Positions 60,930 through 64,000 of a DNA stretch of 64,000 nucleotides are shown here, in pieces (the first letter of the stretch is position 1; each line of letters begins with the position of its first letter). Made by a program: the position numbers and the translations under genes. Below the pieces are notes generated by a model, which saw nothing but the letters and a program-made list of their open reading frames with translations, searched no databases and was not told where the DNA came from. The DNA is from Escherichia coli (GTDB lineage Bacteria > Pseudomonadota > Gammaproteobacteria > Enterobacterales > Enterobacteriaceae). Where the stretch lies: the NCBI RefSeq assembly GCF_003790525.1, contig NZ_CP033635.1; one strand, given 5' to 3'.

Positions 60930-62483
60930 ATGCAAATGATTACCTCGCGACAAAACAGATTATTACGATTCCTTCTACCACGAAGGGAATATACGACTAT
61001 TGTTACAATTGCCGGCTATTTAAATGTTTCGGAAAAAACCATTCAACGTGATTTACGTTTACTTGAGCAATGGCTGGGGCAATGGAGAATAAATGTTGAG
61101 AAGCGTGCTGGCGCGGGTGTGATGTTAAGCGCGGAGAATATTGCTGATTTGCTGCATCTTGATCATTTGTTGGGAGCAGAATGTGAAGAGATTGATGGTG
61201 TAATGAATAATGCCAGGCGCGTTAAAATAGCGTCGCAGTTATTAAGTGAAACACCGAATGAAACGTCGATCAGTAAATTGTCAGAACGCTACTTTATCAG
61301 CGGAGCCTCTATTGTTAATGACCTGAGAGTAATTGAGTCCTGGCTTGCGCCGTTGGGGTTATCATTGATCCGCAGCCCAAGTGGTACGCATATTGAAGGT
61401 AGTGAAGGGCAAGTCCGACAGGCAATGGCATTACTGATTAACGGCATTATTAACCATAATGAGCCGCAAGGTGTCGTGTATTCACGTCTGGATCCCGGAA
61501 GCTATAAAGCATTAGTCCATTATTTTGGAGAGGAAGAAGTGTTATTTGTCCAGTCATTGTTACTGGATATGGAAAATGAATTAAGTTGGTCTTTGGGAGA
61601 ACCTTATTACGTTAACATTTTTACTCACATCCTTATTATGATGTATCGCAACACGCACGGGAATGCGTTATCAAGAGAAGAAGATCAAACCAGGCAATAT
61701 GATGAAAATATCTTTAATGTTGCCAGTCAGATGATTCATAAGATAGAACAACGAATTGCACATACATTGCCCGATGATGAAGTCTGGTTTATTTATCAAT
61801 ATATCATTTCATCAGGTGTGGCGATTGATGGACAAAAAGATGTGAGCATTATTTCACATATGCAGGCCAGCAATGAAGCGCGTCTGATTACCTGGCGTTT
61901 AATTACGGTATTCAGTGACATCGTGGACTGCGATTTTAGTGAAGACAGCGCATTATATGATGGCTTAATGGTGCATATTAAACCGCTGATTAACCGACTA
62001 AATTATCGTATTCATATCCGTAATCCATTGTTGGAAGATATTAAAGCAGAACTAGCGGATGTCTGGCGGTTGACGCAATATGTGGTGAATCAGGTATTTA
62101 AAACCTGGGGTGAGAATGCAGTGAGCGAGGATGAAGTGGGTTACCTGACCGTTCATTTTCAGGCTGCGATGGAGCGGCAAATTGCCCGTAAACGTGTATT
62201 ACTGGTCTGTTCAACCGGAATCGGAACTTCGCATCTACTGAAAAGCCGTATTCTGCGAGCATTTCCTGAATGGACGATTGTTGATGTTATTTCAGCAGCG
62301 AATTTATCACAGGTTTTGCCTGACAATATCGAACTGATTATTTCGACAATTAATTTGCCTACAGTCACTATGCCGGTCGCTTATGTTACCGCTTTTTTTA
62401 ATGATGCCGATATTAAGCGGGTCACTGAAATGGTGATTACGGAAAAATTACATCATGCGACGTCTCGGGTCGTTGAAATTTAA
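60930..62483 (+). CDS. PRD-domain transcriptional regulator with PTS EIIB/EIIA-like regulatory domains (BglG/MtlR/LicR type)
   Basis: 517 aa; N-terminal HTH, central PRD-like segments, C-terminal ...VLLVCSTGIGTSHLL... (EIIB-like Cys). Confidence 0.7.
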   Translation: MQMITSRQNRLLRFLLPRREYTTIVTIAGYLNVSEKTIQRDLRLLEQWLGQWRINVEKRAGAGVMLSAENIADLLHLDHLLGAECEEIDGVMNNARRVKIASQLLSETPNETSISKLSERYFISGASIVNDLRVIESWLAPLGLSLIRSPSGTHIEGSEGQVRQAMALLINGIINHNEPQGVVYSRLDPGSYKALVHYFGEEEVLFVQSLLLDMENELSWSLGEPYYVNIFTHILIMMYRNTHGNALSREEDQTRQYDENIFNVASQMIHKIEQRIAHTLPDDEVWFIYQYIISSGVAIDGQKDVSIISHMQASNEARLITWRLITVFSDIVDCDFSEDSALYDGLMVHIKPLINRLNYRIHIRNPLLEDIKAELADVWRLTQYVVNQVFKTWGENAVSEDEVGYLTVHFQAAMERQIARKRVLLVCSTGIGTSHLLKSRILRAFPEWTIVDVISAANLSQVLPDNIELIISTINLPTVTMPVAYVTAFFNDADIKRVTEMVITEKLHHATSRVVEI

Positions 62484-62509
62484 TGTCAGAATTTTATGAG
62501 GTATGACGA

Positions 62510-62980
62510 ATGGACATAACAAAAATCCTGAATACGAATCGCGTTATTTTAGATATGCAAGCGACGAATAAAGCGGAGGCGATTGAAGAATTAACTAATC
62601 TTCTCAAAAAAGATGGTGCGATCGATTGTCGGGAAACCTTTATTAAAGATGTCTGGCAGCGCGAAGCGGAAGGCTCGACTGGTTTTGAAAATCATATTGC
62701 GATCCCGCATGGTAAATCTTCTGCGGTAATTAATACTACGCTGGCAATTGGCCGTACCCGCCAGGATATTCCCTGGGAAACGCTGGATGGCAGTAGCGTG
62801 CGCTGTATTATTTTATTTGCGGTACGTCTTGAAGATCAAAATACCACCCATATCCGTTTACTTTCCCAGGTCGCGGGCGCGCTGGCGGATGATGACATCA
62901 TAGAACAATTGTTAGTTGAGACGAGTCCGCAAAAAATCATTGATCTCTTTAGTCAGTATGCACAATCCGATGTCTGCTAA
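62510..62980 (+). CDS. PTS EIIA component (fructose/mannitol-type)
   Basis: 156 aa; ...GFENHIAIPHGKS... phosphorylation-site His region typical of EIIA(Fru/Ntr). Confidence 0.75.
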   Translation: MDITKILNTNRVILDMQATNKAEAIEELTNLLKKDGAIDCRETFIKDVWQREAEGSTGFENHIAIPHGKSSAVINTTLAIGRTRQDIPWETLDGSSVRCIILFAVRLEDQNTTHIRLLSQVAGALADDDIIEQLLVETSPQKIIDLFSQYAQSDVC

Positions 62981-62997
62981 ATAACAGGGAGTATGTC

Positions 62998-63312
62998 ATG
63001 AATATTGTCTGTGTTGCCGCCTGTACGGCGGGTATTGCTCATACCTATATTGCTCGTGAAAAGTTAATCAAAGGAGCAAAAGCTCTGGGCCATACCATTA
63101 AAGTTGAAACCCAGGGAACCATTGGTACAGAAAATGAATTACAGGCGGCAGATATCTCTGCTGCTGACGTCGTGATTCTTGCTGTAGATGTGAAAATAAA
63201 AGGAGAAGAACGCTTCACCAATAAACGTATTGTGCGAGTAAAGACAGAGATCGTCATTAAATCGCCCGTTCAATTTCTTGAAAAGGTCGAAAAATCACTG
63301 GGAAACAAATGA
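62998..63312 (+). CDS. PTS EIIB component (fructose-like)
   Basis: 104 aa; N-terminal ...IVCVAACTAGIAHTY... with active-site Cys. Confidence 0.75.
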   Translation: MNIVCVAACTAGIAHTYIAREKLIKGAKALGHTIKVETQGTIGTENELQAADISAADVVILAVDVKIKGEERFTNKRIVRVKTEIVIKSPVQFLEKVEKSLGNK

Positions 63313-63336
63313 TCCTTATACTGGAGGGATCTTAAT

Positions 63337-64000
63337 ATGAAAGAAAATAAAATTCCGGTTTCACAGGAAATTAAAAAACATTTATTAACCGGCATCTCGT
63401 GGATGATACCCCTTATTGTGGCCGCCGGGATATGTATTGCGTTGGGGCAAGTTCTTGGCGGTACAGATGTTGGTGAAAAAACAGGAACAATCCCGTGGAT
63501 GCTTAATCAGATTGGCGGCTGGGGAATGGGGCTGATTGTGCCGCTGATTAGCGCGGCAATTGCCTATTCTATTGCTGATCGTCCCGGTTTTGCCCCGGGC
63601 CTGATTGTCGGCTTTCTCTGTGGGCAAATCCATACCGGATTTATTGGCGGTATGTTGGGTGGTTTCCTGGTGGGCTACACCATTTTGCTACTTAAACGCT
63701 ATATCCGCCTGCCGCAGTCGATGCAAGGACTCATGCCAATCATGGTGTTGCCGGTATTAAGCACCATTATCGGTGGGCTGTTAATGATGACGCTGATTGG
63801 TAAACCCATCGCCTGGTTACAAGAAGCACTGATTCATTTGCTCGAGTCGATGCAGGGCGGATCGCGCTTCCTGATGGGGGCCATACTTGGCGCGATGGCA
63901 ACCTTCGATTTCGGTGGTCCGGTCAACAAAACCATGTCGCTGTTTTCCGATGGCTTGCTGGTCAGTGGCGTCTACGGACCAGAAGCCGTGAAATTTGTCG
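63337..64000 (+). CDS. PTS EIIC component (fructose-like), 3' end outside the window
   Basis: ATG at 63337 after RBS GGAGGG; translation MKENKIPVSQEIKKHLLTGISWMIPLIVAAGICIALG... is polytopic; open to the window end (not in the ORF track because no stop is present). Confidence 0.75.
   Translation, partial: MKENKIPVSQEIKKHLLTGISWMIPLIVAAGICIALGQVLGGTDVGEKTGTIPWMLNQIGGWGMGLIVPLISAAIAYSIADRPGFAPGLIVGFLCGQIHTGFIGGMLGGFLVGYTILLLKRYIRLPQSMQGLMPIMVLPVLSTIIGGLLMMTLIGKPIAWLQEALIHLLESMQGGSRFLMGAILGAMATFDFGGPVNKTMSLFSDGLLVSGVYGPEAVKFV

Follow-up and report, generated by a model that had tools for sequence, protein, structure and literature searches.

The phosphotransferase genes downstream of yicI are very probably the 5´ half of the frz operon, an accessory carbohydrate locus of Escherichia coli

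The frz operon was first described in the avian pathogenic E. coli strain BEN2908 (Rouquet et al., 2009, J Bacteriol 191:4427, as cited in PMC12928451). The BEN2908 genome paper lists it as region GR27, which lies between yicH and yicI (3991916..3999198) and spans 7283 bp, and PCR primers that give a frz product of 843 bp have been published (PMC6238794). In epidemiology, frz is used as a marker of extraintestinal pathogenic E. coli, avian as well as human. The original description reportedly lists two class II aldolases, a cupin and a ROK kinase alongside a PTS activator and three PTS subunits of the fructose type. According to secondary sources, which cite Rouquet et al. (2009) and Reperant et al. 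(2011), frz mutants are affected in their fitness in serum, in the gut, in late stationary phase and when oxygen is restricted, and frz is linked to type 1 fimbriae, namely to their expression and to the ON state of the fimbrial switch. A Listeria pan-genome paper presents lmo2133-lmo2138 as the homologue of E. coli frz. This Listeria monocytogenes locus shares with frz a regulator, the fructose-like subunits EIIA, EIIB and EIIC, and a pair of class II aldolases. In contrast to frz, it resides in a Firmicute, and its annotation as quoted in that paper lists neither a ROK kinase nor a cupin.

The window analysed here is a 64,000-nucleotide stretch of E. coli DNA (contig NZ_CP033635.1). We are highly confident that its positions 60930–64000 represent the 5´ half of frz, an eight-gene accessory carbohydrate operon that would operate by the mechanism proposed below. 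This assignment is made because the site and the gap match those of BEN2908 and the published primers match exactly. Between the yicI stop (60635) and that of yicH (window-equivalent 67917, taken from the identical sequence of strain SMS-3-5), the gap is 7283 bp inclusive. The two primers align with 0 mismatches at 61335–61354 (+) and 62158–62177 (−), both inside frzR, and span 843 bp. The eight-gene content also agrees, and the window copy differs from that of BEN2908 only as an allelic variant. The statement of the initial annotation that K-12 has yicH beside yicI is correct: in MG1655 the two genes are convergent and 52 bp apart, and no PTS genes lie between them. The frz locus is real and already described, and the departure of the window from the K-12 gene order needs no new biology. 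Our additions to the published operon are small: syntenic Citrobacter orthologues with core-like divergence, conserved repeats upstream of frzR, and the conservation of histidine and cysteine residues in FrzR.

All the frz genes are located on one strand with intergenic gaps of −20 to 80 nt (Table 1). Open reading frames, Pfam and NCBIfam agree with the initial description, in which a PRD regulator of the LicR/MtlR type precedes separate genes for EIIA, EIIB and EIIC. The EIIC gene, as also noted there, runs past the end of the window, which holds its first 221 codons. When the sequence is extended through genomes that are identical over the stretch, four catabolic genes follow EIIC: two class II aldolases, a ROK kinase and a cupin of the D-lyxose/D-mannose isomerase type. 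The operon ends at the stop codon of the convergent yicH, just before which a hairpin and a T-run are present. RefSeq names the EIIB and EIIC products 'PTS fructose transporter subunit IIB/IIC', and the regulator 'BglG family transcription antiterminator'.

Table 1. Positions of yicI, the frz genes and the putative regulatory features within the window.
Feature	Position	Strand	Description
yicI	58317-60635		directly upstream of frz
Hairpin just past the yicI stop	60650-60680	+	perfect 10-nt inverted repeat CCGGATACGA/TCGTATCCGG
Candidate regulator-binding site	60734-60764	.	conserved inverted repeat GATCAC-N19-GTGATC
Candidate operator	60809-60825	.	TGTCC-N7-GGACA, just upstream of the putative -35
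Putative activator-dependent promoter	60829-60863	+	weak -35, 16-nt spacer, -10
frzR	60930-62483	+	517 aa; PRD-containing transcriptional activator, Mga/MtlR type
EIIA ("frzA", a convenience label)	62510-62980	+	156 aa; fructose/mannitol type
EIIB	62998-63312	+	104 aa; fructose type
EIIC	63337-64000	+	664 nt in the window; full gene 1092 nt, 363 aa (SMS-3-5), ending at window-equivalent 64428

FrzR contains five domains in the order HTH_11 (2.4e-14), Mga (4e-13), PRD1 and PRD2 (two stretches, 9.7e-31) and an EIIB-like domain (PTS_IIB, 24.4 bits against a Pfam cutoff of 23.6). MtlR, LicR and ManR of Bacillus, as well as AtxA/Mga, share with FrzR the order of HTH and Mga, two PRDs and an EIIB-like domain, together with a conserved cysteine. 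However, MtlR, LicR and ManR carry a C-terminal EIIA-like domain, whereas Pfam detects no PTS_EIIA_2 match in FrzR, which terminates at residue 517, just past the EIIB-like domain. FrzR therefore adopts the five-domain layout of AtxA/Mga. The Paenibacillus orthologue consists of 683 residues and, judged by length alone, is long enough for a C-terminal EIIA-like domain. The alignment places His233, His349 and His409 of FrzR at the positions of LicT His100, His207 and His269, while the equivalent of LicT His159 is Tyr291 in FrzR and a tyrosine in all orthologues. The 9 orthologues compared all share His233, His349 and Cys427. These three residues and His409 are candidate phosphorylation sites of FrzR. 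We take His349 and Cys427 to be close in position to MtlR His342 and Cys419.

Upstream of frzR, the hairpin just past the yicI stop is predicted to fold into a 12-bp stem (−18.3 kcal/mol, z = −2.56) and is the diverged counterpart of the hairpin between yicI and yicH in K-12. Comparison with the K-12 junction shows that the DNA specific to frz carriers begins at about 60681–60683. Eight frzR upstream regions, from seven genera-level sources, were compared. The TCAC and GTGATC of the distal repeat are invariant among them, which makes this repeat a candidate FrzR-binding site. The arms of the proximal repeat are likewise invariant and its loop is variable, consistent with a candidate operator. 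A simple scan also flags the proximal repeat as terminator-like. The putative promoter, whose sequence blocks are conserved in the same eight regions, comprises an invariant block, TTTAGTATTGT (60829–60839), with a weak -35 (TTGTTG, 60836–60841), and a -10 (TATATT, 60858–60863) separated from the -35 by the 16-nt spacer. A scan of 60560–61000 with the sigma-70 consensus found no canonical promoter, which fits a dependence on an activator. A CRP or Cra site proposed by eye at 60755–60775 was rejected, as its second half-site is poor and not conserved.

The three PTS subunits are of the fructose type, in agreement with the initial description of a fructose-like PTS, and all score above the cutoffs of the corresponding domain models: EIIA (PTS_EIIA_2, PF00359, 3.8e-35; TIGR00848, 127 bits against 103.5), EIIB (PTS_IIB, PF02302, 4.4e-19; TIGR00829, 100 bits against 76.85) and EIIC (PTS_EIIC, Pfam, 4.5e-12; TIGR01427, 311.5 bits against 157.55). 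The histidine of HIAIPHG and the cysteine of AACTAGIAHT are the active-site motifs of Fru-type EIIA and EIIB, respectively. The phosphorylated residues are probably His67 of EIIA and Cys9 of EIIB, which lie in these motifs.

Both aldolases belong to the class II family (PF01116, 1.4e-75 and 6.6e-91) and retain the metal ligands D81/H82 (the D-H motif), H178 and H208. The idea that one of them is an inactive GatZ-like partner is not supported, since both keep these ligands. They align with AgaY (1GVF; E = 1e-41 to 1e-50) and miss all the NCBIfam equivalog cutoffs for FBA, GatY and KbaY, while the second passes that of an uncharacterised subfamily (NF006042, 526 against 405). The pathways for galactitol, N-acetylgalactosamine and D-tagatose, which use GatY/KbaY, resemble frz in combining a PTS with a class II ketose-bisphosphate aldolase. 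Compared with these pathways, frz misses the tagatose-bisphosphate aldolase cutoffs, contains neither GatZ/KbaZ nor PfkB, and employs another PTS family. The cupin matches PF07385 (Lyx_isomer) over its full length (1.2e-86) and aligns with the D-lyxose isomerase of E. coli O157 (3KMH) over 223 residues (E = 6e-65) with the HxH...E...H residues kept, although it scores below the equivalog for D-lyxose/D-mannose isomerase (NF051472, 272 bits against 350). The O157:H7 locus of the D-lyxose isomerase Z5688 (ECs_5070) holds a clear homologue of the frz cupin, and there too a sugar kinase and a class II aldolase adjoin it. That locus differs from frz in having an ABC transporter and a PfkB kinase in place of the PTS and the ROK kinase, and it sits elsewhere on the chromosome, between yjcS and phnP. 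In the ROK protein, the ROK domain covers residues 3–299 of 310, which suggests the kinase type; its best model is the Mak-type fructokinase PRK09557, with a score below the cutoff (315 against 443). No frz protein reaches the NCBIfam equivalog cutoff for any characterised enzyme or transporter.

These data suggest the following mechanism. FrzR would bind the conserved repeats that precede frzR and activate the synthesis of one long transcript. FrzR is probably controlled through PTS phosphorylation of the PRD histidines and of the cysteine in the EIIB-like domain, such that the operon would be on only in the presence of its sugar and in the absence of preferred ones. Phosphate from PEP would pass via EI and HPr to EIIA (His67) and then to EIIB (Cys9), and EIIC would import and phosphorylate a sugar of the fructose-PTS family. 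We infer that the cupin, the Mak-like ROK hexokinase and the two class II aldolases would convert this sugar, and probably also a related free aldose, to triose phosphates. frz encodes no PfkB-type 1-phosphofructokinase, and the mechanism therefore does not account for the step from a PTS-made ketose-1-phosphate to the bisphosphate. The initial annotation allowed for a sugar or a sugar alcohol as the substrate. The operon lacks a dehydrogenase, which makes a sugar likelier and a sugar alcohol less likely.

Other readings of the regulator and of the transporter were weighed against this mechanism. The RefSeq product name, the resemblance of the FrzR PRD region to LicT and GlcT, and a hairpin with a T-run at 60809–60834 would suit a BglG/LicT-type antiterminator that acts on a leader RNA. 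However, Pfam finds no CAT RNA-binding domain in FrzR, and its N-terminus is instead of the DNA-binding HTH_11 and Mga type and resembles AtxA and AcpB in alignment. Moreover, the NCBIfam antiterminator equivalogs score far under their cutoffs (GlcT, 65 against 320; LicT, 46 against 300), and an Rfam search of 60400–64000 returned no element and one sub-threshold chance match. The hairpin precedes the putative -10, and its arms do not co-vary but are invariant. Antitermination by FrzR is therefore extremely unlikely. Some reviews, as well as the automatic annotation of EIIB and EIIC, treat Frz as merely a second fructose PTS, and EIIC indeed scores 297 bits with the FruA model. The cutoff of this model is 793, and the equivalog cutoffs of FruA, FruB, Frv and Frw are all missed widely. 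The cutoffs of MngA (250 against 763), of the EIIC model PRK10478 (263 against 426) and of the EIIB model PRK10474 (108 against 135) are missed as well. With no FruK-type kinase in frz, and with an aldose-ketose isomerase and two extra aldolases that would be superfluous for fructose, we regard a second fructose PTS as very unlikely. Alternatively, Frz might serve mainly in sensing or signalling, tuning genes elsewhere (for instance, the type 1 fimbrial switch), rather than as a nutritional pathway. The phenotypes given in secondary sources are the orientation of fimS, adhesion and fitness under stress rather than growth on a defined sugar; they are pleiotropic, and a signalling role would fit them as well. 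The literature covered on frz, FrzR and Z5688 assigns no substrate to frz. In contrast, a signalling device would not account for four catabolic enzymes that keep intact catalytic residues and are predicted to be co-transcribed with the PTS, nor for the conservation of the regulator, EIIABC and two aldolases across phyla, including in organisms without a fim switch. We consider signalling as the main role unlikely, though less so than a second fructose PTS, and favour a nutritional pathway.

The same weighing applies to the origin of the locus, which the initial annotation had left as inserted or retained. frz is present in 1606 of 5426 complete E. coli genomes (~30%), and 3818 of the 5426 have a clean, empty yicI-yicH junction. 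In addition, the G+C content of frzR, EIIA and EIIB is 41–44% (GC3 34–42%), compared with 52–54% in the flanking yicI and yicH, and a transfer of the module between Enterobacteriaceae and Listeria is an idea passed on in the Listeria pan-genome paper. These observations would be expected of a recent genomic islet gained horizontally by pathogenic lineages. However, among the matches listed, frz occupies the identical site in Citrobacter werkmanii and Citrobacter sp. FP75 (yicJ-yicI / frz / yicH-xanP), and frz of Mangrovibacter also adjoins yicJI. The nucleotide identity between E. coli and Citrobacter is similar for the frz genes (72–85%) and for the flanking core genes (76–85%), and within E. 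coli the frz genes differ by 0.3–4%, much as the flanks do. No integrase, IS element or direct repeat was found at the frz junctions. A recent islet is hence doubtful, and the synteny with Citrobacter and the flank-like divergence favour retention over insertion, that is, an old locus that has been lost in many E. coli.

The regulator, EIIABC and the two aldolases recur, among the matches listed, in Citrobacter, Mangrovibacter, Pectobacterium, Brenneria, Acerihabitans and Marinilactibacillus, while Paenibacillus holds the regulator, EIIABC and the second aldolase only. This six-gene core is seen from Listeria and Marinilactibacillus to Pectobacterium. The domains, the K-12 junction and the distribution of frz together bear out the initial view of an accessory PTS to which no substrate has been assigned. 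We tentatively propose that the core may be a cross-phylum module for a sugar other than fructose, either a ketose or a manno/lyxo-configured sugar, to which Escherichia and Citrobacter add the isomerase and the Mak-like kinase. The E. coli locus would then be an ancestral Enterobacteriaceae trait of the yicI-yicH site that was deleted in ~70% of strains, rather than a 'virulence' acquisition. If this is true, naming the sugar would explain the fitness advantage in serum and the gut that the secondary sources report.

The window copy of frz is 100% identical to that of SMS-3-5, ~99.0–99.3% identical to those of many other frz-carrying genomes, including E2348/69 (99.0%), and 97.6% identical to those of one further group. 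The identity with SMS-3-5 applies to the frz stretch; upstream of ~56.4 kb the window departs from that genome, and the integrase coordinates disagree. In this upstream part, only TUM9803 and GF60 match portions of the window.

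The regulator and PTS genes downstream of yicI belong to the published frz operon, which is located between yicI and yicH in E. coli; all three defining features tested were found. The BEN2908 genome paper (2026) lists a region GR27 'yicH..yicI' (3991916..3999198) that holds the carbohydrate operon frz of Rouquet et al. 2009. This interval measures 7283 bp, as does the stretch from the yicI stop codon to the yicH stop codon at the window locus. PMC6238794 gives PCR primers for frz with a published amplicon of 843 bp; in the window they match with zero mismatches at 61335-61354 (+) and 62158-62177 (-) and span 843 bp. 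Both primer sites lie inside the regulator gene. In the original 2009 description by Rouquet et al., frz reportedly comprises a Mga-family PTS activator, three fructose-subfamily PTS subunits, two type II ketose-1,6-bisphosphate aldolases, a ROK kinase and a cupin, and the gene content of the window locus agrees with this list. The feature is thus already described, and it is in wide use as a strain marker. The labels frzA, frzB and frzC serve as convenience names only.

yicI, encoding an alpha-xylosidase, ends at 60635. The initial annotation had recognized a LicR/MtlR-type PRD regulator followed by separate EIIA, EIIB and EIIC genes, the last running off the window end; the ORF positions and Pfam domains bear this out, and its interpretation as an accessory sugar or sugar-alcohol PTS is sound. 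Over its final 6 kb, the window matches E. coli SMS-3-5, along with at least 19 further complete genomes, at 100% identity. Extension into SMS-3-5 completes EIIC (363 codons) and reveals four further genes on the same strand, encoding two class II aldolases (ald1 and ald2; 283 and 286 aa), a ROK-family kinase (310 aa) and a Lyx_isomer cupin (226 aa). Beyond these genes, directly before the stop codon of the convergent yicH, lies a hairpin. The gaps among the eight genes range from -20 to 80 nt, which indicates that they form one operon.

Features of the frz 5´ half, its upstream region and the selC island (window coordinates)
Feature	Position	Strand	Description	Pfam domains
GATCAC-N19-GTGATC	60734-60764		invariant block in 8-region alignment	
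TGTCC-N7-GGACA	60809-60825		invariant block in 8-region alignment	
TTTAGTATTGT	60829-60839		invariant block in 8-region alignment	
TATATT	60858-60863		invariant block in 8-region alignment	
frzR regulator ORF	60930-62483		517 aa	HTH_11 (2.4e-14); Mga (4e-13); two PRD stretches (9.7e-31); weak PTS_IIB-like domain
EIIA ORF	62510-62980		156 aa	PTS_EIIA_2 (3.8e-35)
EIIB ORF	62998-63312		104 aa	PTS_IIB (4.4e-19)
EIIC ORF	starts 63337		continues past window end	PTS_EIIC (4.5e-12)
tRNA-Sec	56538-56632	minus		
integrase ORF	55054-56238	minus		

In K-12 MG1655, yicI and yicH are convergent, only 52 bp apart, with one hairpin in between, so the gene order expected in the initial annotation is correct. 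Of 5426 complete genomes of E. coli, frz-specific DNA is present in 1606, nearly always as a single chromosomal copy, and 3818 have an uninterrupted yicI/yicH junction; the two classes together account for essentially all genomes. On the left, the frz-specific DNA starts immediately past a diverged version of the K-12 hairpin (60650-60680); on the right, it abuts the yicH stop. Neither junction contains an integrase, IS element or direct repeat.

The initial annotation left it open whether the operon was inserted or retained here. To weigh the two readings, species-representative genomes were scanned with the second aldolase, and the matches listed were searched by tblastn with all Frz proteins. 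Among these matches, Citrobacter werkmanii and Citrobacter sp. FP75 share the order yicJ-yicI / frz / yicH-xanP, and frz of Mangrovibacter adjoins yicJI. Nucleotide identity between E. coli and Citrobacter is 72–85% for the frz genes and 76–85% for yicJ, yicI, yicH, xanP and gltS, and frz genes of different E. coli lineages differ by 0.3–4%, a divergence similar to that of the flanks. The synteny and divergence pattern give frz the look of an old, vertically inherited locus, and on this ground we somewhat favor its retention in some lineages and deletion in others over insertion, with the caveat that the G+C content of frzR, EIIA and EIIB is low (41–44%). In three genera, including the loci L006–L008 of C. 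werkmanii, Citrobacter sp. FP75 and Mangrovibacter yixingensis, frz comes immediately after the yicJI operon, which encodes the alpha-xylosidase and a transporter. The ROK kinase gene is absent from C. werkmanii and present in E. coli and Citrobacter sp. FP75. A 2011 paper cited in PMC12928451 has a title that connects yicJI with bacterial fitness.

EIIA, EIIB and EIIC each score above the curated cutoff of NCBIfam fructose-family domain models, which places the transporter, as predicted at the domain level, in the fructose PTS family; none of the NCBIfam cutoffs for characterized transporters of this family is reached. EIIA His67 and EIIB Cys9 lie within canonical motifs. Both aldolases keep Asp81-His82, His178 and His208, and neither reaches the NCBIfam equivalog cutoff for fructose- or tagatose-bisphosphate aldolase. 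The cupin is clearly homologous to the O157 D-lyxose isomerase of solved structure, and the ROK protein is predicted to be of the kinase type, closest to the Mak fructokinase. As the simplest pathway, we propose that the PTS would take up and phosphorylate a ketose or manno-type sugar, a related free aldose would be isomerized, the resulting free sugar would be phosphorylated, and aldol cleavage would yield trioses. A PfkB-type 1-phosphokinase is missing from the operon, which leaves a gap in this scheme. No frz substrate is reported in the literature searched.

RefSeq names FrzR a 'BglG family transcription antiterminator'; the protein has no CAT RNA-binding domain and instead carries HTH_11 and Mga DNA-binding domains. 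At its ends it is similar to AtxA and AcpB and, in contrast to MtlR, LicR and ManR, it has no C-terminal EIIA-like domain. The PRD histidines of LicT are His100, His159, His207 and His269, which align with FrzR His233, Tyr291, His349 and His409, respectively. Within the EIIB-like domain, Cys427 is part of a VCSTG motif. This cysteine, His233 and His349 do not vary among nine orthologues, three of which have Tyr in place of His409. In B. subtilis MtlR, His342 is activating and Cys419 inhibitory; by analogy, HPr would activate FrzR through PRD2, and in the absence of substrate transport FrzR would be inactivated by its cognate EIIA/EIIB.

The invariant blocks emerged from eight aligned frzR upstream regions spanning E. 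coli to Acerihabitans. Judged by conservation, TTTAGTATTGT contains a putative weak -35 element and TATATT a putative good -10 element, and both inverted repeats are candidate binding sites. A simple scan of the frzR upstream region yielded no consensus promoter, which fits an activator-dependent promoter. An Rfam search of 60400-64000 was negative.

The frz core module is a recognized homologue of Listeria lmo2133-2138, as published. Among the matches listed, Pectobacterium, Brenneria, Acerihabitans and Marinilactibacillus have the core without the ROK kinase, and Paenibacillus lacks both this kinase and ald1; the cupin is also absent from some of these loci. In Marinilactibacillus psychrotolerans (L059), the second aldolase gene is immediately followed by a 160-aa ORF (6474-6956) that, by eye, resembles the short D-lyxose-isomerase-type cupins of Firmicutes; if it is one, the association of cupin, PTS and aldolase would reach outside Enterobacteriaceae. 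The O157 D-lyxose isomerase locus combines a cupin, a class II aldolase and a sugar kinase, as frz does, although uptake is by an ABC transporter rather than a PTS. In O157:H7 Sakai (L004 14701-21467, ECs_5067-ECs_5073), it encodes the Z5688 cupin, class II aldolase, PfkB kinase, ABC transporter and a regulator, and its downstream logic parallels frz.

The match to SMS-3-5 does not hold for the window as a whole: its first ~56 kb belong to a different island of mosaic structure. This large island (1-56632) takes up nearly all of the window upstream of yicJ and is inserted at the selenocysteine tRNA gene selC. Of the 5426 complete genomes, only TUM9803 covers at least 80% of 36000-58000, and only one other, GF60, at least 80% of 1-25000. 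TUM9803 combines the selC island with an empty yicI/yicH junction, which indicates that the two loci are inherited independently of each other. According to the annotation of the 99.8%-identical GF60 stretch, ~21600-25500 would encode an S6-family peptidase (a serine-protease autotransporter), a YadA-like adhesin fragment, a TRAP transporter, sodC, an ABC transporter with a ROK regulator, and an AbgT transporter. The integrase-proximal ~37000-54000, annotated from TUM9803 (99.8% identical), contains a carbamate kinase / xanthine permease / YlbE / FdrA / AllH-like cluster, a PhoX phosphatase, a phosphoethanolamine transferase, a TPR protein and several IS fragments.
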